Shown in pieces: positions 1 to 45,310 of a DNA stretch of 49,306 nucleotides. The position numbers and the translations under genes were made by a program. The stretch lies in IMG/VR virus record IMGVR_UViG_2654587756_000001; one strand, given 5' to 3'. The first letter of the stretch is position 1. Each line of letters begins with the position of its first letter. Source of the DNA: a virus. The notes under the pieces are model-generated. The model was not told the origin of the DNA. It saw only the letters and a program-made list of their open reading frames with translations, and did no database searches.

Positions 1-1128
1 ATGATTATGGATAAAAAAGACGAGCTAATAGTTAAAAATTTTTGTTATGAACGTGGACTTAAGGATGTTACAATAAAGAGTTACACGACTGCTATTGGAC
101 TTTATTCCCAATTTCATGAGATGCCCTTCCATGAATTATTGGATGAGGCTGAAAGGGAAGAGCAGGAAGGTGTCAAATGGAAACATTCTATGTTGAGGTC
201 TAGACTTCTGGCATTTAGAAATCATTTGCTGGAGAAAGGACATCTTGCTAATACCGTTAAAGGTTATACTAGCAGAGTCCGAACAGTTTATGAAGAAGGA
301 TATGACATTGAAATTGGCAGAATGCCAAAGTTAAATCAGAAAAATGTTAAAAAAGCCACACCTATTTCTTATAATGATTTGCCCGATAAGGAATTGATAA
401 GGCATGTTTTAAAAATGGTTAATCCTTTAATGAAGGCCATTATTTTATTCATGACCAGCAGTGGCTGTGCTAAAAGGGAAACTTTAAATTTGACTATTCA
501 GGATTTTATAGATGCTACCTATGAATACCATCAAAAAAGTGATTTTGATGATGTTCTCGTAGAATTATATGGTAGAGACGATATTGTTCCATCCTGGAGT
601 CTAAGAAGGCAGAAAACCAACAAATATTATACTACTTTTTCAAGTCCGGAGTCTACAGCTGAGATATTGCACTATCTGGTAATAGATGAAAGAGAATTAA
701 CCAATTCATCTAAGCTGTTTAATATCACTTCCACCCATCTTAATAATACGTTTGGAAAAATCAACAATCAGTTAAAGCTGGGTAAAGCAGGTGCATATAA
801 TAAGTTTCGTTCTCATATGTTAAGGAAATTTCATGCCAGTCAATTGTATAATGATGGGCTTAGTATGGATGAAATTGATGAACTTCAGGGACGGGGTAAA
901 GACCAGACCAGAACTTCCTATTTCATGGAAGATCCTTTACGATTAAGAAGTAAGTATATTGAACATTTGGGTGCTCTAACAATTAATGTTGATGTAGAGA
1001 AATTATCTTTTAAATCTCCAGAGTTTATGCAAATTGAAAATGAAAATAAACGTTTAAATGAAGAATTGGATAAACTCAGGAGTGATATATCTATTATCAA
1101 AGAAGCTTTAGGAAATAGTCTTGAATAG
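1..1128 (+). CDS. int: Tyrosine recombinase/integrase
   Basis: N-terminal SAM-like core-binding region, box I-like SSGCAKRE, HMLRKFH (HxxR), LQGR and TSY (catalytic Tyr), C-terminal coiled coil. Confidence 0.9.
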   Translation: MIMDKKDELIVKNFCYERGLKDVTIKSYTTAIGLYSQFHEMPFHELLDEAEREEQEGVKWKHSMLRSRLLAFRNHLLEKGHLANTVKGYTSRVRTVYEEGYDIEIGRMPKLNQKNVKKATPISYNDLPDKELIRHVLKMVNPLMKAIILFMTSSGCAKRETLNLTIQDFIDATYEYHQKSDFDDVLVELYGRDDIVPSWSLRRQKTNKYYTTFSSPESTAEILHYLVIDERELTNSSKLFNITSTHLNNTFGKINNQLKLGKAGAYNKFRSHMLRKFHASQLYNDGLSMDEIDELQGRGKDQTRTSYFMEDPLRLRSKYIEHLGALTINVDVEKLSFKSPEFMQIENENKRLNEELDKLRSDISIIKEALGNSLE

Positions 1129-1279
1129 ATTATTTCCATTTTATACATTTTACTATTTTTTCTTATTTTTTACTGAACACCAATTTTAAAAACATCGGCG
1201 ATTATTTTTTGAGGGTAAACAATTTAATATAAAAACTGTTTTTTCATTGAATATTATTCAAAAAAAGTAAAAGATAAGT

Positions 1280-1287
1280 TTTATATA
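1280..1287 (+). promoter_or_regulatory. Archaeal TATA box with purine-rich BRE-like upstream sequence
   Basis: AAAAGATAAGT-TTTATATA about 26 nt upstream of the 19-bp repeat array. Confidence 0.5.
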
Positions 1288-1312
1288 TTCAAAACACCAA
1301 ATCTATGATTGG

Positions 1313-1388
1313 GTCTTATGAGTGAGGACAATTCTTACGAGTGAGAACAATTCTTATGAGTCGGGACAATTCTTACGAGTGAGAACAA
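1313..1388. repeat. Four tandem 19-bp imperfectly palindromic repeats (operator/iteron-like)
   Basis: gtcttatgagtgaggacaa / ttcttacgagtgagaacaa / ttcttatgagtcgggacaa / ttcttacgagtgagaacaa; units 2 and 4 identical; no spacers. Confidence 0.95.
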
Positions 1389-1873
1389 TTTTTTTTGTAA
1401 GGCTTAAACTATCAATTTAGTGAGGTAAAATATCAATAAAACATGAAAAAAATGTAATGAGAAAAAAGAAGATCTTAAACCATATAAAAAAGGATTATAA
1501 TATTAAAAAAATATTTATATGGAAAACGAGCTAATAAATATTATTTTTTAATATAATCCTAAATTATAGGGCCAGTAAGAAAAATAGAAATAGTAAACAG
1601 AGTCGCCAAACTATGTTAAAATTAATACTTTTCAAAACTTAACCCAATATTTAGTTTATTTTAAAAACTATATAAAGATTTTCAAATTGAAAAAATCAGT
1701 GCTTATCTTATTCTAAATATGTGGTAAAGAATGAAAAATTATTTTTACCGACTCGCTATTTTTACTTTTCATACATTCCTGGCCAATATGATTAAGATTT
1801 TCAAAAATCATTTCTCTCTCAATTACTTACTGAAATAATAATTGGGAGGTGAAAAATATGGGGTCGCCAAAAT

Positions 1874-2047
1874 ATGTATGAACTAAAAAAATCAATAAAC
1901 CAAAGAATACGTAAAGAAACCATTGTTGTCCATAACTTTCAGGCTCTTGAAGAAGCAATTGCTGAAATTTCAGAATCTGAAAATATTAACAATGAAAGAA
2001 AATTCTTTGCTTTATATGAAATAAGGATATCGAAACTGGATTCATAG
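1874..2047 (+). CDS. Small hypothetical protein (57 aa, not in ORF track)
   Basis: MYELKKSINQRIRKE...SKLDS read by hand; GGAGGTGA upstream. Confidence 0.5.
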   Translation: MYELKKSINQRIRKETIVVHNFQALEEAIAEISESENINNERKFFALYEIRISKLDS

Positions 2048-2106: not shown

Positions 2107-2211
2107 ATGTTAGAACAGGATGTAAATGGAGTGCCTCATGTTTTAGTTCCAAAAGAGGTATGGGATAAAATATGGGACGTTTTTGATAGAATTGAAAATG
2201 TGGGTGAATAG
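2107..2211 (+). CDS. Small hypothetical protein (34 aa, not in ORF track)
   Basis: MLEQDVNGVPHVLVPKEVWDKIWDVFDRIENVGE; AAGGAG RBS; stop abuts the next ATG at 2213. Confidence 0.55.
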   Translation: MLEQDVNGVPHVLVPKEVWDKIWDVFDRIENVGE

Positions 2212-2212
2212 A

Positions 2213-2554
2213 ATGAATAGCTATTCCACATTTGTAGATGATTGCATTAATGAGGTTGATCAGATGACATCCTCCATTAATCAATTCGAAGACAATTACC
2301 ATGGCATCTTAACCCACAACGGTGAGATTAAAGTTGCCAAAGGTGATGTAGAACAAAAAATTCTCCACATTGATGATAATGGCACTGTATTAGTTAAAGG
2401 TGCAAAAAGTTCCTACTCTACATTAATACACGCAAAACTGTTGCCATTAATTAATTATGCAACTAAAGGAGATACAGCATTCATCAAATTCAGAAGGGGT
2501 GAAGCTTTTATTGTTGGATTTAGGAAAAAGAAAAGAGTTGATTCACATGTCTAA
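2213..2554 (+). CDS. Hypothetical viral early protein
   Basis: ORF track 2183..2554; ATG at 2213 fits the coupled operon. Confidence 0.65.
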   Translation: MNSYSTFVDDCINEVDQMTSSINQFEDNYHGILTHNGEIKVAKGDVEQKILHIDDNGTVLVKGAKSSYSTLIHAKLLPLINYATKGDTAFIKFRRGEAFIVGFRKKKRVDSHV

Positions 2555-2681
2555 ACCGGCCAGACTATATCCTAAACCAGAACCAGTCAACATTAATCTA
2601 AAATTAATTTTGATTGGAAGTATATTATTTGCTTTAGTATTGGGTTGGATTGGAATTGCAACCAGTTATGGGGGGTTCTAA
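2547..2681 (+). CDS. Small single-TM membrane protein (44 aa)
   Basis: Hydrophobic LILIGSILFALVLGWIGIA; overlaps the upstream stop. Confidence 0.6.
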   Translation: MSKPARLYPKPEPVNINLKLILIGSILFALVLGWIGIATSYGGF

Positions 2682-2715
2682 TAGGAACTCTCCAATCTTT
2701 ATAGGAAGTGAAAAA

Positions 2716-3276
2716 ATGGTAAAAGCAGAAATTATAGAAAATTCAGAAGTCTCTAAAGAAAACGGATTAATAGCTGCAGATAATGTTCCTAATGTTGATG
2801 TGGCTATTGAACAATGGGACGCATATCAAAAACTATGTAAAGGATTATTGAATGAAACGGATTATCAGGAAATCATTGTAAAAGAAAAGGATGAAAACGG
2901 AAACTATATTAAAGTCAAAAGGCACTTTAAAAAGAAATCAGTATGGCAAAAACTCTCACGTGCATTCAATGTCGACACTTCAATTGTAGATCGTGACATT
3001 GAAAGAACCAAAATGGGCAGAGTACGTGAAGCTTATTACTGCGTTAGAGCAACTCTTCCAAATGGACGCAGCGTAGAATCAGACGCTTTATGTTCTCGCT
3101 CAGAAAAAGGAAAAGACAAAGTCTCAGATCACACCATTATGTCCACAGCTAAAACACGTGCAACTAATCGTGCAATAGCTGAACTGATAGGTGCGGGAGA
3201 AGTATCAGCAGAAGAAATGACAGCTGAAAAAGCAGTTGAAAATCAATCAAAATTTTTAAAAGAGGACAATAGCTAA
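2716..3276 (+). CDS. Putative single-strand annealing/recombination protein (Rad52/Sak-like)
   Basis: C-terminal MSTAKTRATNRAIAELIGAGEVSAEEM resembles the conserved helix of viral annealases; lies in the replication module. Confidence 0.45.
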   Translation: MVKAEIIENSEVSKENGLIAADNVPNVDVAIEQWDAYQKLCKGLLNETDYQEIIVKEKDENGNYIKVKRHFKKKSVWQKLSRAFNVDTSIVDRDIERTKMGRVREAYYCVRATLPNGRSVESDALCSRSEKGKDKVSDHTIMSTAKTRATNRAIAELIGAGEVSAEEMTAEKAVENQSKFLKEDNS

Positions 3277-3311
3277 ATCCTCAATTTATATTTTTTTAGG
3301 AGAAGGATAAA

Positions 3312-3812
3312 ATGAGTTTTAATGACAAACAGACTATCTTCACAGGTACACAATTAGATTATGAAGAAATTGTAGAAATTCCGGACGGATATGAAAAAGC
3401 AGAATTGAAAGACTTCGGAGACGGCAAACTATTGGCGGGAAGGCCAGAAATGTCTTCTGTTACTTCTTACACATTTGACGATGATGGGGAAGAAAAAACA
3501 GTCAACAGATTCAAACTATACATCTTTCAGGATGATGAGCAGTTATATATTGAAATCAATGTAAACCTCAAAAACGATGGAGACATTCACAAAAATATCA
3601 GAAAAGGAAGTGTACTATTTGATTTTATTACCAGCATTCTTGAATTGGAAAATGCAGGTTCAGTCGGCAAATCAAACATCATCAAAAACGTTAATCTTAA
3701 AGAGTACCGTGAATTCGTAAACAGATTAGGTGAAATGACGATACAGGTTAAAGAAAAAACTGGAAGCTATGTCTATTACAGTTTCATTGTACGTGATGTC
3801 CAAGTAAAATAA
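3312..3812 (+). CDS. Hypothetical protein, possibly ssDNA-binding
   Basis: Beta-rich, acidic; sits between annealase-like gene and MCM. Function inferred from position only. Confidence 0.3.
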   Translation: MSFNDKQTIFTGTQLDYEEIVEIPDGYEKAELKDFGDGKLLAGRPEMSSVTSYTFDDDGEEKTVNRFKLYIFQDDEQLYIEINVNLKNDGDIHKNIRKGSVLFDFITSILELENAGSVGKSNIIKNVNLKEYREFVNRLGEMTIQVKEKTGSYVYYSFIVRDVQVK

Positions 3813-3836: not shown

Positions 3837-5807
3837 ATGGCTACCGGTAAAGCACTGTTAAAAAAATACATTAAAGAAACACATAAAAAAGAGATTGACA
3901 AACTCAAATCTCAAAATAAACAGTGTAAAGTCAGTATTGATTATGATGATTTAAATCAATTCCTGATTGATCAATCCGGGAAAGATTTCTGGAAACATAA
4001 AATATATGAGTTCATTAATCAGATGGATGAATATTTCGATACTGGCAACGTTACCTTAAAATTCATAAACGTGCCTGAAAGAGATAACCTCCATGATTTG
4101 GATGCTACATATAACAATGAATGGATAAGCACCAAAGCAATGATTAAAAACATAACTGACGTCCGTGTTGATTTAAAAACTGCCTGTTATCTTTGCAGAG
4201 AATGTGGAAAACGGCACTTCTTGCACATCTCCAACCCCACACAGCAAACAAGGGTTCCACCTTTTTGTGATGGTTGTGGTGCAAGAAGCAAATCCATGAA
4301 TTTTGATAAAGAAACAAGTATTTACAGGAATTATAGATTATTGAAACTTGAAGAACCATTGGAGTTAAGGAGTGGAGGTTCAACAAGAGAATTTAAAGCT
4401 ATTGTTTTAGATTTTCTTGCATCTCCATTCACTAATCTGAAAGTAGGTGATGTTGTTAATGTAACTGGCCTTTTCAAAATTGAACCTAGAAAAATTAAAG
4501 GCCGAAGTGACGGATTTGAGTTCATAATTCATGTTCACAACATTACTCCTGTAGATGATGTTTTTGAAGATTCAAGGATTAGTGAAGAGGACATTAATGA
4601 AATAATCAACCTGTCTAAACAGGATAATGTTTTTGATTTGTTGTGGAGGACTTTAGCTCCTGAAGTTTACGGTCATGAAACTATCAAGAAAGGTTTGATA
4701 CTTCAATTATTTGAAGGAAATAGGCCGATTTCTGATGTGTTCAAATCCGAGAATATGGACAGATGGACAATACATATCCTATTAATTGGCGATCCTGGAA
4801 TCGGAAAAAGCCAGTTAATACAGGCTATGAAAAAACGTGCACCTAAAAACATTACTATAAGCGGAACCAACACATCACAAGCAGGATTAACGGTTTCGAC
4901 CGTAAAAGATGAATTGACCGGAACTTGGACAATGGAAGCCGGTGCAACAGTACTGGCAGATACTGGTGTTTTATGCATTGATGAATATGATAAGCTTTCC
5001 CCTTCAGCACAGAAATCACTTAACGAACCCATGGAACAGTCAAGTGTTTCAAGTGCTAAAGCGGGACTGGTACAAACAATGTCTGCAAGAACATCAATAC
5101 TTGCCGGTGCAAATCCAAAATATGGCAAATTTGACAGATATAAATTATATCGGGACCAATTGGAAATACCAGAATCCAACTTGTCCCGTTTTGATTTGAT
5201 ATTTGCCCTTGAAGATGATGTGGATAAAGAAAAGGATTCTAAACTTGCTGATGCATTGCTTAATAAAGATTTCATCCTTGATGAATCTGAAACAATAGCT
5301 ATTGATCTATTTAAAAAATACATAACATGGATTAAAGCCAACTGCTTTCCAGTATTGAGCAGAGATGCAAAAATACTCCTTAGGGAGTTTTATGTTGATA
5401 CAAGAAAAGTTGCTTCACAGACAAGTGACGGAAAACCCATAACTGCAAGGGATTTAAAGGCTTTGGAGAGATTAACAATAGCTAGAGCAAAATGTGAATT
5501 TCGCTCCGAAGCTACAATCAAAGATGCAATTGAAGCTATTGACATTTACAAAGAAGCATTAAAGGGTTTAGGATTATCATTAGCAACAGCAGGTGAGTTA
5601 TATGGAGTTCATTCACAGGATGAATTAAGTGTTATTTCTGATATGGAAAATATGATTAGAAATAATATCGATATGGAAGGGGGCATGTTATCTTCTGAAT
5701 CATTGAGGCATTTGGAAATTGAATGTGGCATGTTATGTCATGAAAAAGGTATAAATCGAGAGGGGATTTTTGACATTGCATATGAGAATGTGAAAAAAAC
5801 TCTTTAA
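3837..5807 (+). CDS. mcm: MCM replicative helicase
   Basis: Zn finger CRECG...CDGCG, Walker A GDPGIGKSQ, Walker B LCIDEYDK, arginine finger LSRFD, sensor ITARDL. Confidence 0.97.
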   Translation: MATGKALLKKYIKETHKKEIDKLKSQNKQCKVSIDYDDLNQFLIDQSGKDFWKHKIYEFINQMDEYFDTGNVTLKFINVPERDNLHDLDATYNNEWISTKAMIKNITDVRVDLKTACYLCRECGKRHFLHISNPTQQTRVPPFCDGCGARSKSMNFDKETSIYRNYRLLKLEEPLELRSGGSTREFKAIVLDFLASPFTNLKVGDVVNVTGLFKIEPRKIKGRSDGFEFIIHVHNITPVDDVFEDSRISEEDINEIINLSKQDNVFDLLWRTLAPEVYGHETIKKGLILQLFEGNRPISDVFKSENMDRWTIHILLIGDPGIGKSQLIQAMKKRAPKNITISGTNTSQAGLTVSTVKDELTGTWTMEAGATVLADTGVLCIDEYDKLSPSAQKSLNEPMEQSSVSSAKAGLVQTMSARTSILAGANPKYGKFDRYKLYRDQLEIPESNLSRFDLIFALEDDVDKEKDSKLADALLNKDFILDESETIAIDLFKKYITWIKANCFPVLSRDAKILLREFYVDTRKVASQTSDGKPITARDLKALERLTIARAKCEFRSEATIKDAIEAIDIYKEALKGLGLSLATAGELYGVHSQDELSVISDMENMIRNNIDMEGGMLSSESLRHLEIECGMLCHEKGINREGIFDIAYENVKKTL

Positions 5808-7739: not shown

Positions 7740-8141
7740 TTAGATACCCTTTACATTAATTCTTTTTTCTCTTGCAAATTCCTTATCAAAAGTAACTAAA
7801 TAATCCAAATTATATTCCATTACTGTTACAATCATGCCAGAATCCGTAAAGCTTAGTTTACCATCAAATTTATTAAATATTTTAATAGTTTTTGAATTAT
7901 AATGGGGTATCGTATGTTCATTTATAATTTTAAAGTTATCTATCATGAAGTAATACATTGTTTCTGCTTTTTCAGCATCCCCTTTTAAATTAACAACATT
8001 AACAACTTCTTCTATTACATTATCTCCAATATAACAATCTTCAGATAATAAGTCTCTAAGTTCTAATGCTTTTTCTTTATTACTATCGTTTTCTAACGCT
8101 AATGCAATTATAAATGAACTGTCGAAATAATATTTTTTCAT
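7740..8141 (-). CDS. vapC: PIN-domain VapC toxin
   Basis: YFDSSFIIAL, EEVV, SFTDS, LVTFDKEF acidic PIN motifs. Confidence 0.9.
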   Translation of the reverse strand: MKKYYFDSSFIIALALENDSNKEKALELRDLLSEDCYIGDNVIEEVVNVVNLKGDAEKAETMYYFMIDNFKIINEHTIPHYNSKTIKIFNKFDGKLSFTDSGMIVTVMEYNLDYLVTFDKEFAREKRINVKGI

Positions 8142-8371
8142 TTCTTATATACCTCTCTTTTTAATTCAACACTATTTGTAACCTCTTTTGTTTTAACAAT
8201 ACCAATTATATCCTCTATATTGACTTTGTTTCTGAAGTTAACTTCTGGTTGCCCATCATCAGTTATTCCCCATTCTACAATAGTTTCATCATTTATATCA
8301 AAAGCTTCTCTCATCTCTTTTGGGATGGATGTTTGGAAGTTTTTATATATTTTTGTATTTGCTACCATCAT
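8138..8371 (-). CDS. vapB: AbrB/MazE-type antitoxin (VapB)
   Basis: QTSIPKEMREAFDI...VEW swapped-hairpin motif; 4-nt overlap with vapC. Confidence 0.85.
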   Translation of the reverse strand: MMVANTKIYKNFQTSIPKEMREAFDINDETIVEWGITDDGQPEVNFRNKVNIEDIIGIVKTKEVTNSVELKREVYKK

Positions 8372-8710
8372 ATTTTTTCACCTCATATCTCACATATCTT
8401 TCATATCATTGCATCTTAAATTAATCATAAAATATTAATCTGTTAAATTATTGCTAAAACATTAAAGTTTACAATAGCGTTGGTTATAATTATAAATTCT
8501 GTTATATATAAATTTATCTGTCAATTAAAAATTTATGATAAAATTAGGATTAACAGAAATTCAAAACTATAAAAAATACATCGAGTTTTAATCTTATTTT
8601 TTATTTATCTTTATTACCAAATTATTTATTACTTATTTTATATAAAAAATATAATAAATATTATAATAAAAGATATATTTCAAGTTAAACATTAATTGGA
8701 AGTGATTATT

Positions 8711-10012
8711 ATGGGTGTTGCTAACTTTATTAAAACTAGATTATTGAATAATCGTGTAGAACAATACAACACAAAACGTAGCTATTGGGGTGAAGATGAA
8801 AGACAACCTAGAACTGATGGAATCAATACTGGCCTTGATCTAATTGATGCGCTTCCACCAGTAATTAATAAGACAATAGCTAATGCACGATATGCCGTTA
8901 AACTTGACGGATATACTTCAGGAATTTTGAAAAACAGGATTGATAAAGCTAATGTTAATATGGTATTGGTGGACAAGGACAATAAACTCTCACAGGAACA
9001 GAAATTAACTTTAATATTATGGGCCAGAAAAATCGACATCAGCCAGGTAGCAAAAAACATCCTGCAGGGAGGAATGGTTGATGGAGAGGGTTTAATTAAA
9101 CCGGTTGAACGTTGGGATAAGGATATCGGCAAATATATTAAACCAATATTTCTAGAAATCGGTGCTAAAGGCTATGGATTAAAAAAGGAATTTAATGATG
9201 ATAATGAAGTGCAGCTATTCCTGCATGAAATGCCTAAAGATGTTGTTAATGGCACTCCTGAAGACTTTAATAATTTTGTAAGCGTTGAAGAAGGAAAATT
9301 AACAGTTAAATATGACGCTGAAGAAGTTATTAACTTTATGTATAATGAAATATACTGTGAGGCTCAAAGCATTATCCTGAATTGCTTAGATGATATTTAT
9401 CATAAGTGCAATCTGGAGAGAAATCAGGTGGAGAGAATTAATAAGGATAATATTATTGAGGTTAAGCCTTCACTTGATGCTAACGGTCAACCTATAATTA
9501 CTGAACTTTCAAGCACTGCTAAAGAAAATCTTTATTCAGATTATGGAACTACTGCAGACAGTAATGTGGCTATTGTACCTCCAGGAATTGAATCTAAAAT
9601 ACTTGGGGGTAACAATTACCAGTCAGACTATACTAGACAGACTGAAATCTTTAGAAATAATATTTTAAGAACTTTTGTAACACCGCAGTCTCAGGCAGGT
9701 AATGAAAAATCAAACCAGAATGTTGCAGAATACATTAACGATTCGGCTATTACAGGTTTCATTGTTAATGTAGCCAATGACCAGAAATGGGTTTTAAAGT
9801 ACTGCAATGAACTATTAAATCGCCAATTGGAGTTAATGGGTATTAAAGATACGTATAATGTTTATTTTAGCTATTCAAGAGATGATGTTGTTAAATATAT
9901 AATGGAGTTATCAGCTGAAGGTGATGAAATATATGAGAATTATTTAAGTAACTTTGAAGAGGAACAGCCTGTAGGTGAAAGGATTGTAAGTGATAGTGGA
10001 GCCGAAATATAA
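8711..10012 (+). CDS. Putative portal protein
   Basis: ~434 aa, directly upstream of the prohead protease, helical ends with central beta region. No diagnostic motif recognised. Confidence 0.6.
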   Translation: MGVANFIKTRLLNNRVEQYNTKRSYWGEDERQPRTDGINTGLDLIDALPPVINKTIANARYAVKLDGYTSGILKNRIDKANVNMVLVDKDNKLSQEQKLTLILWARKIDISQVAKNILQGGMVDGEGLIKPVERWDKDIGKYIKPIFLEIGAKGYGLKKEFNDDNEVQLFLHEMPKDVVNGTPEDFNNFVSVEEGKLTVKYDAEEVINFMYNEIYCEAQSIILNCLDDIYHKCNLERNQVERINKDNIIEVKPSLDANGQPIITELSSTAKENLYSDYGTTADSNVAIVPPGIESKILGGNNYQSDYTRQTEIFRNNILRTFVTPQSQAGNEKSNQNVAEYINDSAITGFIVNVANDQKWVLKYCNELLNRQLELMGIKDTYNVYFSYSRDDVVKYIMELSAEGDEIYENYLSNFEEEQPVGERIVSDSGAEI

Positions 10013-10072
10013 TATATATTTATATAAAATAAGTAATAAAATATATAATAAATAATATAATAAAAAGTGATA

Positions 10073-11023
10073 ATGATGAGGCATGAACTTTTTGAAGTCG
10101 GATCATATGACTATTCCGATCTGGACAATCGACTTGACAAACCTGTTGAATGGACTGAAGATGATCTAAAGCTAATAGCTGAAAACTACCGTGGAGGAAT
10201 TCCTTTAACTTCTGAGCATGACAATATCTATGTCGGTATTGGAAACAATATCTCTTATGAAAAAGGTAAGCTATTCATTGAAGTTCCGGATGAACTGGAT
10301 ATGGAAGGAAAAGGTCTGTCCCCTAAAGTTGATGTCTTGCTGAAAGATAATGGAGATTCATTTGGAATTGATACTATGAGCTTAATAGATGTTGGTGTAA
10401 CTAAAAACCCTAGAAAAATTACTTTATTGAATTCTGAAATAACTGAAGATGTTGGAGAAACCAGAACTCATGAGCCACAACCTCATCCTCCCAGTAAAGA
10501 TGCTAATGTAGCAACTAGTCTGTTATTGGAGAAATTGCAGGGCAAGGATGCAGAAATTGGAAAGCTTCAGGATGAAATAAATAGCTTAAAGGAAGAATCT
10601 GAAAAATATGATGAAATAAAAAAAGCTATTGAAGAAAATAAGGAATTCATAGACAGTAAAGATGAAATCCTAAAAGAGTTATCAGAACTCAGAAAAGCCG
10701 AAAATGAAAGAAAAATAAAAGAGTACGAATCTAAATACAACTTTAACTATAATGAAAATGCACAGGATAAGGAAATAATTGATAAACTATTGTCTGGTGA
10801 TGTTGATATGGAACTGATGGAAAAACTGGCAGAGAGAAGAATACAAATAGAAGCCAGTAATGACGGTTCAACGCCTGGTGGAAGAAATCCTGAAAATTCT
10901 GGAAATGAGGGAGAAGTCGGTGAAACCGGCAGTACATCTGATGAAAATGCACCTTCCTTTACTACCCGTGAAGAATATAATAAGATTTTAAAGGACATGG
11001 GATTCAACAGAACTAGAATATAG
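10073..11023 (+). CDS. Prohead protease-scaffold fusion (Mu gpI-like)
   Basis: N-terminal IPLTSEH..VG, GLSP, LIDVGVTKNPR motifs, then acidic coiled coil and short C-terminal helix. Confidence 0.7.
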   Translation: MMRHELFEVGSYDYSDLDNRLDKPVEWTEDDLKLIAENYRGGIPLTSEHDNIYVGIGNNISYEKGKLFIEVPDELDMEGKGLSPKVDVLLKDNGDSFGIDTMSLIDVGVTKNPRKITLLNSEITEDVGETRTHEPQPHPPSKDANVATSLLLEKLQGKDAEIGKLQDEINSLKEESEKYDEIKKAIEENKEFIDSKDEILKELSELRKAENERKIKEYESKYNFNYNENAQDKEIIDKLLSGDVDMELMEKLAERRIQIEASNDGSTPGGRNPENSGNEGEVGETGSTSDENAPSFTTREEYNKILKDMGFNRTRI

Positions 11024-11610
11024 CTATGATGGTGTATTTTTGTTGCTTTTTACACTGGAGCTAGATTTTTCATGAATCCCTCGTTATTTGATGGGGAAGT
11101 GATTTTTTATACATTTTCTCACTTCTCCTGATATGCTGTATTGATACCCTTAATGCCTAATTAATGGGGGACAAGCCCTCATTTTAATTGCCCATGAGTG
11201 CCAATACAAATTAATTTAAGTTTACAAAACTTAACCCGAACCGACCGATAAATGGTCGGTTCTTAAATTTGACAAATTTAATAATTCCAAACCATAAACT
11301 CGGAACAGGGGGACAAGCCCCTGTTCCTCGAAACTTGATAGTACATTAATTGGGGGATCTATAGTATAGGCCTTTCGCTAACGCTCAAGGCGTCCAGTTC
11401 GACCTATGGTCGGACGGAACATCGAGATAAGATTGAAAATATTATTTTTATTTTGTAGAGTGGATTACGGAACCGACAACTGGTGTCGGTTCCTTATTAA
11501 GTATATACTCGCCAATTCTATTCGCCCCCACCTATACCATGCCTTCCACATATGCTTCCCTTTGGTCAGCATAGGGTCGGCATGGTTATGGTGGGGGCGA
11601 ATTGGCTCGT
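11021..11610. ncRNA. GC-rich multi-hairpin non-coding region (structured RNA or DNA cis-element)
   Basis: At least 8 stem-loops, including perfect 9-12 bp stems at 11238-11262, 11302-11327, 11469-11493 and 11521-11601. Strand and transcription unknown. Confidence 0.5.
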
Positions 11611-11705
11611 TTATAACGTGCGGTATGGAAGTTGGATTTGATTTGAATAAAATTAGTATTTAATCAATAGGTCAAAAATTATTTCTTCATGGAATCCAAA
11701 TACAA

Positions 11706-15920: not shown

Positions 15921-15944
15921 AATCCTTTTAAGAATAATATTAAG

Positions 15945-16809: not shown

Positions 16810-16814
16810 TATAC

Positions 16815-28864: not shown

Positions 28865-28866
28865 TA

Positions 28867-30655: not shown

Positions 30656-30672
30656 GTTTTGTTTTTTCTTAT

Positions 30673-32307: not shown

Positions 32308-32405
32308 ATTTTTTAAAAGAGTTTTTTTTGATGTTTTAAAACAAATAGTTTGGGATAGATAATATATCTAAAAATTTTTATTTTGCATATGATAAATATT
32401 AGTTT

Positions 32406-33378: not shown

Positions 33379-34317
33379 ATGATTACAAAAGGAAATGATA
33401 CTAAAGTACAAAATGAAGTAATAGCTCAAACTATTACTGATGAAACTGCAAAAAGATTGAAGTTGGCTAGATTGTTTCCTAAACAAGAAATTAAAGAGAA
33501 CTCCGATTATTATACTTATTTCAGACAGAACATTAATCTTGATGAAGCTATTAAAAAAGGTTTACTTGGAGAGGCTAAAGACATTGCTCCTGGTGCATCC
33601 TTGCAAGAGTTAAACATCAGAAAACCAGTAACAGACACAATTTCTATTGATACTGTTGGTGGGGTCTTAAATGTTAATAAAGACATTTTTGACAGCGATA
33701 TTGTTTCATTTGAAGATTTATTAGGTGATGTAGCTACTGTTATTGCAAATCGTATTGAATATAACATTTACGATACATTATTAAGCTCACCAAACGTTCC
33801 TGTATACAATACCACTCAAACTGAAGATACCATGGAAGCATACGGCCAGTTCATCCTCAAAGCACAGGAAGCTTTCAAAGGCAATGCCGGTTCAGGAGCA
33901 GACTTAACAATAATGGCCGAGTCTTACAAAACATTATCATACGTTAAACAATTAGCTTACAGTTCCAACAAGTTAGTTCAACCTGTAGAAGACATCAAAG
34001 AATATTACGGTATTGATAATATAGATCTTTTAGGAACAACTCAGGCTGATGGCGGATCATTAGTTGGAGATAAAGAATATATCGGATTTGATTTAAGAAA
34101 CGCTCCATTAACTGTATTGTATTCCAAATCTTCAGGAACAACTACTGCACCAATTACAAGTGATGAAAACATTGCAGACTTTTATCCAATCATTGAAATC
34201 ATGAGAAAAGACATTTACGATGAGTTACCTCAATATACAAAATTGTTCATCCAAAGTAAAGTCGGAATATTATTAAATAAACCTGGACTTGCCTTGAAAG
34301 GTACTTGCAGACCATAA
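33379..34317 (+). CDS. HK97-fold major capsid protein, copy 1
   Basis: E-loop-like KDIAPGASL...TISIDTVGG followed by spine-helix-like FEDLLGDVATVIANRIEYNIYDTL; 312 aa. Confidence 0.8.
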   Translation: MITKGNDTKVQNEVIAQTITDETAKRLKLARLFPKQEIKENSDYYTYFRQNINLDEAIKKGLLGEAKDIAPGASLQELNIRKPVTDTISIDTVGGVLNVNKDIFDSDIVSFEDLLGDVATVIANRIEYNIYDTLLSSPNVPVYNTTQTEDTMEAYGQFILKAQEAFKGNAGSGADLTIMAESYKTLSYVKQLAYSSNKLVQPVEDIKEYYGIDNIDLLGTTQADGGSLVGDKEYIGFDLRNAPLTVLYSKSSGTTTAPITSDENIADFYPIIEIMRKDIYDELPQYTKLFIQSKVGILLNKPGLALKGTCRP

Positions 34318-34331
34318 AGGAGTGATTGTTA

Positions 34332-35258
34332 ATGTTAACCAAAGGAAATGATTCTAAAGTACAAAATGAAGTAATGGCACAGATAGTTGCAGACACTTCA
34401 GCAAAATGGATGAAATTCACCAGATTACTTCCAAAGCAAGAAATAGAAGAAAACTCACAATACTATACCTATATGTCACAAAGAGTTAATATCGAGGAAG
34501 CTATTCAATCCGGCGTGCTTGGTGAGGCCAAAGATATTGCTCCTGGCGCAACCCTTCAGGAATTAAACGTCAGAAAACCAATCAGCGAAACAATATCAAT
34601 TGATACCATTGGGGGTGTCTTGAATGTTTCCGCACAGATGTTAGATTCCAATTTAATCTCCGTTAATGACATGTTACAGGACGTTGGAATTCTCATCGGA
34701 AGAAGCATTGAAAGGGCAGCTATTGACATGATAATGAATTCATCCAAAGTAGCTACCTATGACTTTGAATCTGGTGATGATACTGGTATGACCATTCTTA
34801 AAGCTCAAGAAAAATTCAAAGAATCAGCAGGAAGTTTCACCAACTTAAACTCAATGGCTGTTAGTTATAAATCATTAACAACATTGAAATCAGACATATT
34901 CTCAAGCAACAGACAAGTCGAACCGGTAGAATTAATCAAAAGCTATTATGGTGTGGATAACATTGATATCTTAGGTACTGCTGTCTGTGATGGCGGTTCT
35001 GAAATGGGTGACAAAACCTACATCGGTATGGACTACATTAACTCTGGAATGAAATTGCTATACTCCAGAACTACAGGAACAACCGTTGCTCCTTTAGGAC
35101 CTGACGGTGAGATGTATGATTTCTATCCATTAATAGAATTCATGAGAAAAGACATTCGTGATGAATTGCCAATGTATACAAAGCTATTCATACTTTCAAG
35201 TGTAGGGGTGTTAATGAACGCACCAAACAGAATTATCAAAGGTGAATTTAGAGCATAG
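34332..35258 (+). CDS. HK97-fold major capsid protein, copy 2
   Basis: Colinear paralogue of copy 1 (37 of the first 60 residues identical by hand count). Confidence 0.8.
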   Translation: MLTKGNDSKVQNEVMAQIVADTSAKWMKFTRLLPKQEIEENSQYYTYMSQRVNIEEAIQSGVLGEAKDIAPGATLQELNVRKPISETISIDTIGGVLNVSAQMLDSNLISVNDMLQDVGILIGRSIERAAIDMIMNSSKVATYDFESGDDTGMTILKAQEKFKESAGSFTNLNSMAVSYKSLTTLKSDIFSSNRQVEPVELIKSYYGVDNIDILGTAVCDGGSEMGDKTYIGMDYINSGMKLLYSRTTGTTVAPLGPDGEMYDFYPLIEFMRKDIRDELPMYTKLFILSSVGVLMNAPNRIIKGEFRA

Positions 35259-35494: not shown

Positions 35495-35917
35495 ATGAAA
35501 TTAATTATAGATAGTGAAAATTCACATCCAACAACAATAACAGTTAAAGGAAAAGAAATAACATTGCTGTTAATAGAATCCAGTATCTTAATTGATTCAT
35601 CACAAATAGCTAAGCTATTCGACAAGAAAGAAAAAACAGTAGCCACTAAAGTGCAGAAATCCAAACTGGAGAAATATGAAACTGATAATGTAAAAATATT
35701 AAAGAATTACGGACTGATGAATCCTGATGCAATTAAACCAAGACCATTCTATGATTTAAGACAAATCCTTCAAGGACCAGCTTATTATTACTTCAAAAGA
35801 GAAGATGAAGTTAATCTAATTGAAGTTATCATTAGGGTAGCTATTGGAAAACATCGTGAATGGATTCATAACAGAAATATTGATAATAAGTATTTGTTTG
35901 AAACGAATCTTTTCTAA
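35495..35917 (+). CDS. Hypothetical protein, possibly antirepressor-like DNA-binding
   Basis: ILIDSSQIAKLFDKKEK...RPFYDL weakly resembles ORF6N/KilA-type domains. Confidence 0.35.
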   Translation: MKLIIDSENSHPTTITVKGKEITLLLIESSILIDSSQIAKLFDKKEKTVATKVQKSKLEKYETDNVKILKNYGLMNPDAIKPRPFYDLRQILQGPAYYYFKREDEVNLIEVIIRVAIGKHREWIHNRNIDNKYLFETNLF

Positions 35918-36864: not shown

Positions 36865-37683
36865 ATGTTAGATAATAAAAATAATAATATTAGTTGGACA
36901 AGTTTTTGCCAAGCCATGAACTCAATTGCATTCTGGTTAATCCAGAACAAAAAGAACTACAAAAAACGTGATTACTATCAGGTACTTAATTTAAATGGTA
37001 GCTGTAGTGAAATTGAAAAGAAAGCGAAAAAATTAGGTGAAGATAATTTAGTTGTAATGTATACGATGGCATTAATCAAAGATAATACATCCCTAGACTT
37101 CCTTCCAAACTTTGTAACTTTAAAAAACGGAGAACAATTAGACAAAGCAGAGTACGTGGATATGGCAATAAGAGTTGAAGCATTCATTAAAGCAAATGGA
37201 AGATACCCTGCTATTGTATATAGAATTTCAAAACTTCCAGATTACAATGACTCAACAATGCAGCTATTCATCAAAACATTTAATTATAAAGGAAACACAA
37301 TTGATGAAGCTTTAGCTATTATAGCAAAGAAGAAATTATACAGCAAATACTTTGATTCTCAAAAAACAGACAAGAAAACAATTAATGATGCAAGTAATGG
37401 TAAAGGTTCCAATTGTGTGGACTGGGGACAAGTTTTTTATAGAGTAGCTAAATATTTAGGTTATGATGTCCAGTTTGTCCATGTTAAATGTAGAGTTTCT
37501 GGAACTGGCCATATAAGGTTAAGATTGAAACATTCAAAACATACTGAAGGTAATTGGATTATTCGTGATCCCGCTGCAGTAGCAGATACAACTTCAGGAA
37601 ATGTCAGAGAAATGTGGTGTGAAGATGGATATCTAATAGCATATGATCCTTCATGGATTTTCACAGATTTGTACAGTAGTTAA
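36865..37683 (+). CDS. pei: Pseudomurein endoisopeptidase (PeiW/PeiP-like endolysin)
   Basis: Pseudomurein-binding repeat YVDMAIRVEAFIKANGRYP; catalytic triad NCVDW / GHIRL / IRDPA. Confidence 0.9.
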   Translation: MLDNKNNNISWTSFCQAMNSIAFWLIQNKKNYKKRDYYQVLNLNGSCSEIEKKAKKLGEDNLVVMYTMALIKDNTSLDFLPNFVTLKNGEQLDKAEYVDMAIRVEAFIKANGRYPAIVYRISKLPDYNDSTMQLFIKTFNYKGNTIDEALAIIAKKKLYSKYFDSQKTDKKTINDASNGKGSNCVDWGQVFYRVAKYLGYDVQFVHVKCRVSGTGHIRLRLKHSKHTEGNWIIRDPAAVADTTSGNVREMWCEDGYLIAYDPSWIFTDLYSS

Positions 37684-40264: not shown

Positions 40265-40462
40265 ATGGCCAATATAAATAATACCTCATCCTATATGGAT
40301 GAAGACAAAAAGCAAATAATTAAAGAGTCTAATTATACTTATAGGGATGCTCTTGAAGTTTCAGCTTATCTCATTGAAGTTGGCAAGTTCGAAAGATTCT
40401 ACAAAGAAATGCAAATCCACGATCTTCAAAAGGAACTTGACGAAATGGAAGATGACGAATAA
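40265..40462 (+). CDS. Small RHH-like protein, paralogue of 40597
   Basis: NTSSYMDEDKKQIIKESNYTYRDALEVSAYLIEVG. Confidence 0.55.
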   Translation: MANINNTSSYMDEDKKQIIKESNYTYRDALEVSAYLIEVGKFERFYKEMQIHDLQKELDEMEDDE

Positions 40463-40596
40463 CTTCAAAAAATATATCTCTCGTATATAACTCTTAAAAG
40501 AAAACTATTTTTCATAAGCAAAAGTAATATTTATTATTACTTTTATATTTTTTTATAATAAAATTTTATATATAATACATAATAAATTAATATATT

Positions 40597-40845
40597 ATGT
40601 TACTTGAAAAAACAAACATCAGTGCAAGAGTTGAAATAACACTCAAAAAAATAGTTGAAGATTCTACTTTTACCCACAAGGATGCATATGAACTTGGAGC
40701 TATGCTAATAGCTATTGGAGATGCAGAAAAGACAATAACACAAATACATAAAAATCCTAATTATGAAAAAATTATAAAACAAAGGGAATACAGATTAATC
40801 GAAGCAAGAAAAAAGGAACTTGAAAGAGAATTAAGAGATTTATAG
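40597..40845 (+). CDS. Small RHH-like protein, paralogue of 40265
   Basis: TNISARVEITLKKIVEDSTFTHKDAYELGAMLIAIG plus coiled coil. Confidence 0.6.
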   Translation: MLLEKTNISARVEITLKKIVEDSTFTHKDAYELGAMLIAIGDAEKTITQIHKNPNYEKIIKQREYRLIEARKKELERELRDL

Positions 40846-40860: not shown

Positions 40861-41670
40861 ATGGGTCGAGGAAACTCTGATGTTATATATTTTTTAGAAC
40901 AGCATGAACAGGAAATAATAAACTGCTGCAAGAAAGGAATGAGCAATAACGAAGTCAGAAAATTACTAAAAACAAAATATAATAGAGATGTTGCAGACAT
41001 TACCTATAGAAAATTCAAAGCTAATTTAAATCTGACTAAAAATGATTTTCTTGAAACATTATTGGATGAAATAATAGCTATGAAAACATCTGGAGCAACA
41101 GATGAAAGCGTCAGAAGATGGCTGGCAGAAGAACATGAATTCGAAGTAAGCAGAGCATCATTTTCAAGATTCAAAAAGAAATATCATTTAACAGACAAAG
41201 ACAAAGACCCAAGAGCAAGAGATAAAGAAGCATTAACAAACAGAGCCATTAACCAAAGACAAATAACAGATAATAATCTTCATCATGATAATATTGACAT
41301 AGCTATTGATACAATCCTCCAGCAACAGGTCACAGACATTAAGACTGGTCTGGAAAATCTGGATAAGATAACAAAAAATGCAGTGGGAATTGAAATTGAC
41401 TTTGAAAAACTGGATCAAGAAGTAAGATACCATGCAGGAGAAAAAAGTCTAGCAAGATACTTACTTGATTTGGCTGAATTAAAAATAAGATACTTGGAAT
41501 TGTCTGTACGTGCATTTGACGCTAAAAACAAATTATTCAAAGATGAAATGGACAGATTATTTAAAAATCGTGTTCTTGAACTGGAAGATAAAAAAATAGA
41601 GATGTCTCAAAAGGATATAATGAATGAAATAGAAGTTCTTGCAAAACAAATAGATGATAATAATGTATGA
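40861..41670 (+). CDS. terS: Putative terminase small subunit
   Basis: Two HTH-like repeats (SNNEVRKLL..KY / TDESVRRWL..EH) and a coiled coil; overlaps terL. Confidence 0.6.
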   Translation: MGRGNSDVIYFLEQHEQEIINCCKKGMSNNEVRKLLKTKYNRDVADITYRKFKANLNLTKNDFLETLLDEIIAMKTSGATDESVRRWLAEEHEFEVSRASFSRFKKKYHLTDKDKDPRARDKEALTNRAINQRQITDNNLHHDNIDIAIDTILQQQVTDIKTGLENLDKITKNAVGIEIDFEKLDQEVRYHAGEKSLARYLLDLAELKIRYLELSVRAFDAKNKLFKDEMDRLFKNRVLELEDKKIEMSQKDIMNEIEVLAKQIDDNNV

Positions 41671-43072
41671 TGAAAACGACAAATTTTATTTAGATGCAAG
41701 AGACAAAGCTATTCTTCAGAAATGTGTATATGAAAATCCATATATACCATTTAATCCATTTCCAAAGCAAGCAGAAATGGTATTGGCAACAGAAAAGGAA
41801 GTATTAATCGGAGGTGCTGCAGGAGGAAGTAAATCAACCAGTTTATTAATGAGGGCATTATTTTATGTTCAGGATGATGTTAATGAATATCATGCGTTAA
41901 TCTTGAGACGTACTTTATCTGACTTGAAGCGTAAAGGAGCTTTAATTCATAAAGCTAGTCAATGGCTAAATCGAAAGGAAATTCAAAATAATCAAGCTAT
42001 TAAACCAAAGTGGGATGGAACTGAACACTCATGGACATTTCCAAACGGCAATTCATTAACATTTGGATATTTAAGAAATATCAATGACCTGGACACATAC
42101 CAAGGTTCAGAATATCAGTTCATAGGCATAGATGAACTAACACAACTGGAAAGATTCAAATACATCTATATGCGCTCACGTGTAAGAAAAACAAAAGACA
42201 ATAAACTCCCAACACAACTAATGTGCTCCAGTAACCCTGGTAAGCGTGGAAACAAATGGGTACGTGAAAGATTCATAGAAAAAATAGATGAAGACATACA
42301 GGACAAATCACAAATAAGATTTATCAGCTCCAGCTATTTGGACAATATCTATTTGGATAGAAAAGACTATGAAGAATACTTAATGGGTCTTGACAGAGTT
42401 ACACGTGAACAGTTAATGAACGGTAACTGGTATGCTTCAGTTAAAGGTCAGCTATTTGACGAATCAGACTTCCACATAATCTCTTATGATGAATATCTAA
42501 AAATTCCAATAGTCAGAATTATCAGGTATTGGGACTTAGCAGCTACTGAAGTACTAAATGATGATAAACTGAAAGGCGATGATCCAGATTATACTGCTGG
42601 AGTATTGCTGGCTAAAGATCTATCTGGAAATATCTATATTTTAGATTCATACGAATTTCAGCTCGAGTCAAGAAACCTGATTAATGAAATACTAAATACG
42701 GCAGCACGTGACAATTCGGATGTTCAGTATATTGAATTAGATGGGAGTACAGGTAAAAACTTTGGATTACTTATAATTGATGAGCTAACGAGAAGAGGAT
42801 TCACTACCGGTGTTGGTAACTCAAGAGAAAATAAAGTAGATCGTGCAAGAAGAGTTTCCGCTGATATCCAACTGAATGGAATTTACCTTGTTGGAAAGGA
42901 TAGAACAGGGTTCACCAAAAAATGGGCCATGGAATTTCTAGAAAAAATTACAGCTTATCCAAATGAAGCTATTCATGATGACTGTGTAGTGGCATTTACT
43001 GGAGGATATGAAAAAATAGCTAGTGAAAAACAAACTCAGAGAGTTGATGTAGATAAATGGTATTCTACATAA
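41654..43072 (+). CDS. terL: Terminase large subunit
   Basis: PFPKQ, Walker A GGAAGGSKS, Walker B IGIDEL, CSSNPG, nuclease YWDLAA and HDDCVVA. Confidence 0.95.
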   Translation: MIIMYDENDKFYLDARDKAILQKCVYENPYIPFNPFPKQAEMVLATEKEVLIGGAAGGSKSTSLLMRALFYVQDDVNEYHALILRRTLSDLKRKGALIHKASQWLNRKEIQNNQAIKPKWDGTEHSWTFPNGNSLTFGYLRNINDLDTYQGSEYQFIGIDELTQLERFKYIYMRSRVRKTKDNKLPTQLMCSSNPGKRGNKWVRERFIEKIDEDIQDKSQIRFISSSYLDNIYLDRKDYEEYLMGLDRVTREQLMNGNWYASVKGQLFDESDFHIISYDEYLKIPIVRIIRYWDLAATEVLNDDKLKGDDPDYTAGVLLAKDLSGNIYILDSYEFQLESRNLINEILNTAARDNSDVQYIELDGSTGKNFGLLIIDELTRRGFTTGVGNSRENKVDRARRVSADIQLNGIYLVGKDRTGFTKKWAMEFLEKITAYPNEAIHDDCVVAFTGGYEKIASEKQTQRVDVDKWYST

Positions 43073-43110
43073 ATATTATTTTAATAGCTTGGTGATGTTC
43101 TTTTTCTAAA

Positions 43111-44364
43111 TTAGCTTTTGCTAAATTTATTATATTCTGAGATGTGGTCCAGTAGATTAGATATGTCGCTAGAAGAGATTATATTTTTCTCATCGAATAA
43201 ATATTCAACTGTTTGTTTTTTTGAATAACTATAAATTGAATAATATTCTTTAATCAACTGTAGATCATTTTTAGATATTTTTGAAGAAAGTTCTTTCAAT
43301 AATTGGAGCCTATAAGAATCTAAAATATTTAATAATTCTTTTTTAGAATATTGGGAATCAATTATACGATCTGCTAAAACATTATCACTACAATTTTCCA
43401 ATGAAAAATATTTTTTTAATAAGATTTTTTGTTTATAATTTAAGTCTAAATCATATAAAAGATTGTTTCTAAGATGGTTTCTTGTTGATGTAAGTTCATT
43501 TATTAAAGCATCCTTTGAAAAATTATTGTTTATTAAATAATTTACAAAATTTTTTTTAGAATTCTCAAATCTAAAAATAACTAAATACCTATATTTTTTA
43601 TTTAAATCATTATAGAATTCATTAAATATAATATCATAAATTTCTTTTTCTTCATGTTCCTCAATTAAAGATTTTAAAATATCTGATTTAGAATCTTTAT
43701 CAATAGAAAAATGTTTCTTTAAAAAACTTAATGTAGAATCATCAATATTAATATATAATATTTTAAATAATCTGTTTTTTTCTTGTTTTTCTAATATTTT
43801 TAATCTTAAATCCTCTTCAATAAGTTGTAATTCTTTATTTAATTTTTTTAAATCAGATTCAATAGTTGGGATAAATTCTTCTTCTAGTTGTTTAATATTA
43901 AATATTATATCTATTTTTTCATCCTCATTACAATTAGATAATATTTCTTTTTCTTCTGAAAGTAAATTAGTTAGTGATTTAAATTTCTCTCGTTTTTCCG
44001 AGATTACTTTTAACAAAGATTTTAATTCATTTTTTTTGATTTCAATATCTACGTCCAACCCACTTTTAAAAATAAGGTCTGCTTTATTTTCATTGCATGA
44101 GCGACATAATGTTTGAAGGTTATTAATACTATTTGACCCGCCTGCAGCAAGTGGGATAATATGGTCAATAGTTAATTCTGCACCATTATTTTTACTAGCA
44201 CCACACATTTGACAACGATATCCATCTCTTCGATAAACTTTATCATACATTCCTTTAGGAAGTTTTATTCTACCTTCTCTTTCTTCAAGCGGAGTCCCAC
44301 ACATATCACAAAATTTTGACCTTGAATTTCTTTTTTGACGACATTTAGGACAATATTTTTCCAT
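43111..44364 (-). CDS. HNH endonuclease with Zn ribbon and long helical tail
   Basis: RRDGYRCQMCG...LTIDHIIPLAAGGSNSINNLQTLCRSCNENK. Confidence 0.9.
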   Translation of the reverse strand: MEKYCPKCRQKRNSRSKFCDMCGTPLEEREGRIKLPKGMYDKVYRRDGYRCQMCGASKNNGAELTIDHIIPLAAGGSNSINNLQTLCRSCNENKADLIFKSGLDVDIEIKKNELKSLLKVISEKREKFKSLTNLLSEEKEILSNCNEDEKIDIIFNIKQLEEEFIPTIESDLKKLNKELQLIEEDLRLKILEKQEKNRLFKILYINIDDSTLSFLKKHFSIDKDSKSDILKSLIEEHEEKEIYDIIFNEFYNDLNKKYRYLVIFRFENSKKNFVNYLINNNFSKDALINELTSTRNHLRNNLLYDLDLNYKQKILLKKYFSLENCSDNVLADRIIDSQYSKKELLNILDSYRLQLLKELSSKISKNDLQLIKEYYSIYSYSKKQTVEYLFDEKNIISSSDISNLLDHISEYNKFSKS

Positions 44365-44609
44365 TTAATCACCGAATTAAATAATTCCATCTTATCTAAA
44401 TAATTTTGGATGCTATGATTTTTCTTTTATAATGGGTCACATATGCGGATTCCATTATATTAATGTCCCATATATTGATTATTATTTAATATTTATAGTA
44501 ACAAGTTAATATCAATTACTGTTAATATGATTATAGCTACTACTTGTTAATCAAAAGAATATTTAGAATTTCAGTTCAGGGGTTGATAAAATTTAGGCAC
44601 TATTATCTG

Positions 44610-45155
44610 TACTGGGACTTAGTAGCTACTGAAGTACTAAATGATGATAAATTGGAATGTAATAATTCAGATTATACTGCAGGAGTTTTATTAGCTAAAG
44701 ATTCAAAAATTAATATCTATATTTTGGATTCGTATGAATTTCAGCTTGAGTCAATGAATTTAATCAATGAAATCATCAATAATGTAGCACATAATAAGGT
44801 CGATGTGCAATATAGTAATGTAGATGAAAGTATAGGTAAAAACTTTGAATTCTTAATTATTGGTGAGTTAACAAGAATATAACTTATTAATTATGCAGGT
44901 AACTCAAAATAAAATAAAATTAATGGAGTAATGAGAGTTTTCGTTGATATTCAACTGAATGGAATATGCCTTGTTGGGGAGGATGGAAGTGGGTTCACCA
45001 AAAAATGGGCCATAGAATTCTTGGAGAAGATAACTGCATATCCAAATCAGACCATTTATGATGACTGTGTGGTGGCATTCACTGGAGGATATGAAAAAAT
45101 AGCTAGTGAAAAGCAACCTCAAAGAGTTGATGTAGATAAATGGTATTCTACGTAA
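44610..45155 (+). pseudogene. Degenerate duplicate of the 3' 546 bp of terL
   Basis: Colinear with 42527-43072, same final peptide QRVDVDKWYST, in-frame stops near 44880-44911, no 5' part. Confidence 0.92.
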
Positions 45156-45283
45156 TTATAATTTTTAATTTGTTAATATTTTTTTAGAATTTTTAATTTT
45201 TTTCAAAATGAATATTTTAAGGTTGTGGATTAATATTTATATATCATTGTGCAGAAATATTATAGTACCTGAGAGAAAAGCAG

Positions 45284-45310
45284 TAAATATTTTTTATAGT
45301 ATACGGGCAA
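45284..45310 (+). repeat. 27-bp direct repeat, copy 1 (att-like candidate)
   Basis: taaatattttttatagtatacgggcaa; 26/27 identical to 46735-46761. Confidence 0.75.

Follow-up and report, generated by a model that had tools for sequence, protein, structure and literature searches.

A Methanobrevibacter provirus family with capsid genes, no recognisable tail module and collagen-like fibres most likely rooted in the capsid

The IMG/VR virus record IMGVR_UViG_2654587756_000001 covers 49,306 nucleotides (the window; positions 547,222-596,527 of a single-contig genome of 2,543,538 bp) and holds an integrated provirus of the rumen methanogen Methanobrevibacter millerae SM9. No tail module could be recognised in this provirus or in its relatives, and its fibres most likely sit on a capsid cement protein. 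We favour, at somewhat better than even confidence, an autonomous temperate virus that lacks a long tail and adsorbs by modular, capsid-rooted collagen fibres. A divergent short tail is a serious rival to this reading; lower in probability come a tail-borrowing satellite and a transfer agent. The element itself is already on record, as the SM9 genome paper of 2016 described one integrated 49-kb prophage with integrase, MCM, terminase, restriction-modification and endoisopeptidase genes and otherwise hypothetical proteins (PMC4987999).

No recognisable tail module in the provirus and its relatives

The open reading frames (ORFs) of the window, named here by their start positions, were screened with Pfam and PHROGs, and selected ones were compared by sequence with PDB chains. 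The Pfam and PHROGs screens gave no match to tape measure, tube, sheath, baseplate, hub, adaptor, stopper, nozzle or ejection-protein families in any ORF. The 'tail' labels that appeared were limited to the collagen-like ORFs 16806, 17484, 18442 and 19938, and PF24243 in 19938 is a short "phage tail tip" motif. The longest conserved late ORFs encode 438 and 395 amino acids (aa) and do not qualify as a tape measure. A sequence-only reading of the window had named the MCM helicase (656 aa) as its longest ORF, which the ORF list bore out, and had noticed no recognisable tail module, which these negatives uphold. The tape measure family PF10145 had no match in the whole SM9 genome. The flanking DNA, which the same reading had singled out for inspection, contains 5S, 23S and 16S rRNA genes and conserved host genes to the left of a group II intron, and host-like toxin-antitoxin, hydrolase and ABC-transporter genes on the right; tail genes were found outside the window on neither side.

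Gene order was compared gene by gene among seven genomic copies, four ENA metagenome contigs and the closest relative, Caudoviricetes sp. vir323 (BK063679 / NC_133304), a circular genome of 34,179 bp from a goat-faeces enrichment, reportedly deposited by Medvedeva et al. 2023. The second of the two major capsid proteins (MCPs) of SM9, MCP2, is 97% and the large terminase TerL 93% identical to the vir323 counterparts. The IMG/VR contig behind the vir323 record is 127 bases longer, as expected from circular assembly, and was the sole find of the IMG/VR scans for relatives. The vir323 annotation names a portal, a prohead protease, a "tail protein", a "tail fiber protein", a "preneck appendage protein", two MCPs, the pseudomurein endoisopeptidase (Pei) and TerL. 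The vir323 genome resembles SM9 in its late operon, with two MCPs, a cement protein, fibres, Pei, a candidate for the small terminase TerS, TerL and no tail block, but it lacks integrase, MCM and early module and carries different cargo. The SM9 copy, in contrast, is integrated and about 11 kb larger, with a restriction-modification island, an HNH insert and a TerL remnant.

The late gene order is common to the seven genomic loci, vir323 and the four contigs. It runs from portal, protease, a variable cargo slot, 13302, 14491, three or four small ORFs and a glycosyltransferase-like gene to 16806, the collagen and adhesin genes, a winged helix-turn-helix gene and a second cargo slot, continues with 32888, MCP1, MCP2, a Rha-like gene, Pei and a variable stretch, and ends with two small paralogues, TerS and TerL. 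This comparison of gene content, likewise put forward by the sequence-only reading, returned the same late operon throughout and a tail block in none of the relatives, circular vir323 included, and the SM9 copy has therefore not simply lost one. The identifiable large ORFs in the cargo slots of the relatives encode UvrD/PD-(D/E)XK helicase-nuclease, tetratricopeptide repeat (TPR) proteins and ResIII helicase; several others have no Pfam match and are not conserved in the family. Among the latter is a helical protein of 692 aa beside the fibre genes, which was considered as a tape measure and rejected, being absent from SM9 and most relatives and carrying C-terminal membrane segments. The Methanobacteriales siphoviruses psiM2, psiM100 and PhiF3 have a TerL that is 36-37% identical, and a Pei-type pseudomurein lysin is common to all; these viruses, however, are long-tailed, and the SM9-family MCP finds no match in them.

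A predicted cement protein and the fibres built on it

The ORFs that carry the cement domain and the collagen-like fibre are:

32888-33367, + strand: predicted capsid cement/decoration protein, beta-tulip class (AlphaFold2 (AF2) model, Foldseek, VIA, Atlas)
16806-17447, + strand: predicted head-fibre base with cement domain, short collagen run and truncated joint module (52% identical to 32888)
17484-18356, + strand: collagen-like fibre shaft (PF01391, E 1e-26)
18442-18669, + strand: fibre connector with donor strand, short collagen run and terminal helix (fused to cement base in relatives)
19938-20993, + strand: collagen-like fibre with two intact joint modules and tip domain (PF01391, PF24243)
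14491-15267, + strand: divergent third cement-domain paralogue with a C-terminal domain of about 140 aa (blastp E 2e-6 to 16806)

Predicted folds cover two of the unassigned ORFs, 32888 and 13302, and neither of the two folds obtained (32888 and the core of 13302) is a tail part. The AF2 model of 32888, whose alignment took in paralogues and relatives down to 27% identity, reached a pLDDT of 87.5. Foldseek matched it with probability 1.0 to capsid chains of Haloferax tailed virus 1 (HFTV1) and to the N-terminal base of phi29 gp8.5, and further to capsid chains of Borrelia BB1, FCWL1, Pam3 and T1. In Foldseek and VIA the top fold matches were nearly all shell-bound decoration proteins. The Atlas search placed the family of 32888 itself first, followed by "phage cement" clusters whose TM was low. 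The predicted fold thus belongs with the decoration proteins of lambda (gpD), HFTV1, BB1, Pam3 and T1 in the beta-tulip cement class. A Pfam scan of 32 members of the cement-domain family, distant ones included, gave no cement family by sequence. The 32888 gene ends 11 bases upstream of the two MCP genes. Because the three fold searches agree and the gene adjoins the MCP genes, we conclude from the model, at moderate scores, that 32888 is a capsid cement protein with a beta-tulip or phi29 gp8.5-type base fold.

The identity between 16806 and 32888 extends across the whole cement domain, and the parts that follow this domain in 16806 are continued in the next genes. The joint module of 16806 stops after "...GELFVWHND" and that of 17484 likewise after "...GELYVYQ"; the joint modules of 19938 are intact and continue to "...WxNxGSIKG" and then collagen. 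The N-termini of 17484, 18442 and 19938 begin with the piece missing from the truncated modules, and in 17484 this is the strand that 16806 lacks. In the metagenomic relatives P0226, P0333 and P0334, the cement domain, collagen and an 18442-type end stand in one polypeptide, and 18442 is 67-69% identical to the C-termini of these fused proteins. An Atlas cluster of 359-aa collagen proteins also opens with the same cement domain. The fused forms show an unbroken physical connection between the collagen fibre and the cement-like base, and together with the cement fold they make it most likely that the "tail fibre" genes encode head fibres. We infer that the fibres of 16806, 17484, 18442 and 19938 most likely sit on the capsid and not on a tail. 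Attachment by head fibres had been one of three options of the sequence-only reading, and it is the one that gains direct support, from the 32888 fold, the domain fusion in 16806 and the fused relatives. In databases these genes bear names such as "tail fiber" and "preneck appendage", which probably mislead.

Like phi29 gp8.5, 16806 would join a cement-type base to a trimeric fibre. The SM9 fibre differs in being collagen-like and split across several genes, with truncated joint modules and adhesin-like ends, and phi29 possesses a complete short tail, of which the SM9 provirus shows no detectable counterpart. The third paralogue, 14491, aligns with the cement family, is 88% conserved, and its C-terminal domain ends in a complete joint-like motif.

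Adhesin-like proteins and the possibility of a short tail

Two larger proteins and a group of small ORFs in the same operon bear on whether a short tail could be hidden among the unassigned genes:

13302-14489, + strand: conserved late protein with lectin-like centre (predicted model)
18675-19778, + strand: variable distal protein, likely adhesin (variability; language-model lead)
15333-16208, + strand: small conserved ORFs 15333, 15669 and 15945 (sequence, hydropathy, conservation)

The rival with the most weight is an ordinary short-tailed, podovirus-like virus. Its divergent adaptor or nozzle would lie in the end domains of 13302, in the C-terminal domain of 14491 or in 18675, and the cement-like domain would anchor its fibres at the neck or tail instead of the shell. 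We regard it as less than likely, though it deserves to be taken seriously. The sequence-only reading had likewise named 13302 and 18675 as places where a nozzle fold might be found. In 13302 the modelled core shows no nozzle or knob: the centre (110-327) forms a ConA/lectin-like sandwich, variable among the relatives, and it stands between an N-domain (1-110) and a conserved C-terminal part. Foldseek comparison of this model with the PDB gave generic beta-sandwich matches at most (TM about 0.2), and 13302 showed no relation to the cement family when their profiles were compared. For 18675 there is a language-model lead to Big_1/Invasin Ig-like clusters (0.85-0.87). Its identity to relatives is 37-46%, often across the first 14-17% of its length alone, and it is too variable between relatives for a core tail part. 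The 18675 product is probably an Ig-like adhesin, and the lectin-like module in the 13302 model may also serve as an adhesin. None of the portal, 10067, 14491, 18675 and, searched as a profile, 13302 had a meaningful sequence match among PDB chains, and the distant homologues of 13302, 14491 and 32888 that searches returned all came from Methanobrevibacter or its viruses and included no named relative.

That the small conserved ORFs encode membrane proteins or pieces of the fibre also speaks against a podovirus-like tail, as do the shell-bound character of nearly all top fold matches of 32888 and the position of its gene next to the MCPs. ORF 15333 (63 aa) carries a joint-like motif, and 15669 and 15945 encode small membrane proteins within the structural operon, distant from the Pei gene, which may be holins or membrane-active proteins of the virion. 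All three had been considered as adaptor or stopper and were rejected, two as membrane proteins and one as a fibre-joint fragment.

Distribution, helpers and the satellite and transfer-agent alternatives

MCP genes were surveyed in 300 further genomes of the host's family, 89 of them of the same genus. The MCP pair was present in 33 of these 89 at 85-98% identity, several genomes held two to four copies, and homologues are recorded from M. smithii too. Such frequent, often multi-copy occurrence would suit a capsid-forming, tail-borrowing satellite, an archaeal analogue of the capsid-forming phage-inducible chromosomal islands (cf-PICIs) of bacteria, whose heads would be completed with helper tails. 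The gene logic is also that of the cf-PICIs, in which genes for integrase, replication, terminase, portal, protease and MCP are likewise present and those for a tail missing. However, cf-PICIs have about 10-15 kb, and the elements described here have 34-50 kb (about 45 kb in SM9, 34 kb in vir323), which makes the SM9 provirus three to four times larger. It also encodes a lysin of its own together with an extensive adhesin and fibre module, and connector genes for docking a foreign tail were not found. The vir323 genome, moreover, is circular and complete though it has neither integrase nor replication module.

Resident helpers were sought in six carrier genomes including SM9, two of them single-contig and the others 98-99% complete. 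The sole PF03237 terminase of the SM9 genome is the element's own, and PF03354, PF10145 and PF05065 had no match there. In the five other carriers the count of PF03237 matches equals the count of element copies, so that no second terminase of this family is left for a helper in any of the six, and the PF10145 tape measure occurs in one of the six and is absent from five. With no resident helper detected in six carriers, such a helper is not needed for the persistence of the element; this bears on resident helpers, and a lytic one is possible. Tail borrowing, another option of the sequence-only reading, is not favoured on these grounds and appears improbable to us.

The third option was the production of transducing particles. 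In this case the element would be a defective or domesticated particle producer, like a gene transfer agent (GTA) or transducing agent, that has lost its tail genes. The absence of tail genes, the identity of 85-98% among capsid proteins across species-level genomes, and the much cargo, HNH insert and TerL remnant of the SM9 copy would fit. The copies, however, differ in insertion site and arrangement, several genomes hold more than one of them, and a relative is circular, which is unlike the immobility of a GTA. The close relative vir323 is a self-contained genome of 34 kb, and the intact, tail-less gene set in every relative examined argues against recent decay. We consider a particle producer very improbable.

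Proposed mode of infection

In the autonomous temperate virus that we favour, the family would encode its own packaging, capsid and lysis functions, namely TerS, TerL, portal, protease/scaffold, two MCPs, cement protein, Pei and small membrane proteins. The collagen-like fibres, assembled from several gene products and rooted in the cement-protein paralogue, would recognise the host, with the lectin-like module of 13302 and the probably Ig-like module of 18675 acting as adhesins. We infer that the portal vertex may be closed and opened by a small device, for which 13302 and 14491 are candidates; it could be a very short stub, or nothing nameable as a tail. A stricter form of this reading, in which the family builds portal-bearing HK97 capsids without any tail, carries its fibres on cement and lets the DNA exit through a bare or minimally capped portal, is in our view unlikely. 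If true, the prokaryotic HK97 lineage would have in this family its first member without a tail.

Most methane in the rumen and the human gut is produced by Methanobrevibacter species, and roughly one in three of the genomes sampled from the genus carries this virus family. Capsid-anchored fibres without a conventional tail would change the classification of archaeal "head-tailed" viruses and the understanding of genome delivery through the pseudomurein wall, and a defined adhesin set with a lysin would then be of interest for methane mitigation.

Capsid, packaging and lysis genes

The remaining conserved features of the late region are:

8696-10012, + strand: portal protein candidate (position; 90% identical to BK063679 'portal protein')
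10067-11023, + strand: prohead protease/scaffold candidate (BK063679 annotation 'prohead protease')
11024-11700, unstranded: conserved GC-rich stretch after the protease gene, no credible ORF (72-83% DNA identity in relatives)
16210-16809, + strand: GT-A-like glycosyltransferase candidate (phrog_1574, E 3e-23; weak Pfam glycosyltransferase matches)
33379-35258, + strand: two tandem HK97-type MCP paralogues (PF25209)
35495-35917, + strand: Rha/pRha-like helix-turn-helix (HTH) protein (weak phrog_518 match; sequence)
36865-37683, + strand: Pei lysin with pseudomurein-binding repeat (PF12386, PF09373; phrog_37889)
40861-41670, + strand: small terminase candidate, overlapping the TerL start (position; 82-87% conserved; weak HTH match)
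41654-43072, + strand: large terminase TerL (PF03237, PF04466, PF17289; phrog_979, E 8e-83)

The gene kit listed by the sequence-only reading stood up to Pfam for integrase, MCM, MCP2, TerL and the lysin, and its portal, protease and TerS are assigned by position or by the annotation of a relative. The latter three (8696, 10067 and 40861) had no significant match in Pfam, PHROGs or PDB sequences. Portal and protease, which are 86-90% identical to their BK063679 counterparts, are candidates by gene position and BK063679 annotation, and TerS is one by position. The 10067 product has a charged, probably helical middle part with weak coiled-coil-type matches at most. The stretch that follows its gene is GC-richer than its surroundings and runs for about 600 bases without a credible ORF; an Rfam search of the whole window, this stretch included, gave no match.

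MCP1 (33379-34317) is 56% identical to MCP2 (34326-35258), which matches PF25209 Phage_capsid_4 at E 3.3e-7 and whose vir323 equivalent is annotated as HK97-like. The tandem pair is kept in every copy examined, which suggests, as far as sequence can tell, a fixed division of labour between the two such as hexamer versus pentamer. TerL carries both the ATPase and the nuclease domain (PF03237, PF17289). Two small helical proteins encoded at 40265-40845, directly before the TerS candidate, look like paralogues by eye, and the family conserves both. A role as head-tail connector was weighed for the 35495 product and dismissed because of its Rha-like HTH character; it is probably a regulator rather than a structural protein.

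Integration site

The right end of the provirus is marked by a short repeat:

45297-45310, + strand: putative attR core TAGTATACGGGCAA (four exact copies, same orientation, same locus)

This 14-mer has four exact copies in the 2.54-Mb genome, all on the + strand and all at the provirus locus. They lie 2327 bases left of the window (genome 544894), at window positions 45297-45310, at 46748 and at 57153, beyond the window end, and degenerate copies occur between the last two, near 51112 and 54371. The leftmost two exact copies would be putative attL and attR. The right end of the element at 45310 fits the putative attR, and its left end would then lie about 2.3 kb outside the window, giving a provirus of about 47.6 kb between the putative att cores, inserted group II intron included. 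The other copies may be remnants of further insertions at the same site, and the region from 45.3 to 57 kb a string of decayed islands. On the right side the 14-mer sits inside a longer TATA-like repeat.

The group II intron, with its reverse transcriptase-maturase gene, lies between the putative attL and the integrase (L012:17700-19975). Copies 100% identical to it occur at two other sites of the genome and more diverged ones elsewhere. Two relatives (L056 and L057) have a group II intron after their fibre genes.

Early module, replication and cargo

Outside the late operon the following features were assigned:

1-1128, + strand: tyrosine integrase (PF00589, E 1.9e-6)
2183-3812, + strand: four early genes, 2183, 2457, 2650 and 3312 (accompany the integrase in six of eight relatives)
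3837-5807, + strand: MCM replicative helicase, 656 aa, longest ORF (PF00493, E 5e-73)
7740-8371, - strand: PIN-domain toxin with small upstream partner gene, cargo (PF01850)
21416-32816, unstranded: low-GC cargo island (absent from most relatives)
43111-44364, - strand: HNH endonuclease with zinc ribbon (PF01844)
44594-45185, + strand: remnant of the TerL 3' end (78% DNA identity to 42510-43104)

The integrase and early module differs between copies in its orientation and in the flank of the structural genes that it occupies: some copies have it ahead of the portal, others behind TerL and inverted. The replicase slot is variable too: MCM was found in SM9 and G189 only among the copies examined, and in G126b the slot holds an unrelated protein of 671 aa. 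The low-GC island includes a C5 methyltransferase and two Eco47II-type endonucleases.

The HNH gene is an insert found in none of the relatives examined. It separates the intact TerL gene, which ends at 43072, from the duplicated 3' end. The duplication together with the HNH gene looks, from the sequence, like a recombination or homing scar, or like what remains of another, more divergent provirus inserted at this site.

In G189 (L052) a 2-kb gene for an ABC-transporter membrane protein lies between TerL and the early module. It has 80% DNA identity to an SM9 gene situated about 11-13 kb beyond the right end of the window, and it could be host-derived cargo, or the G189 locus could be composite.

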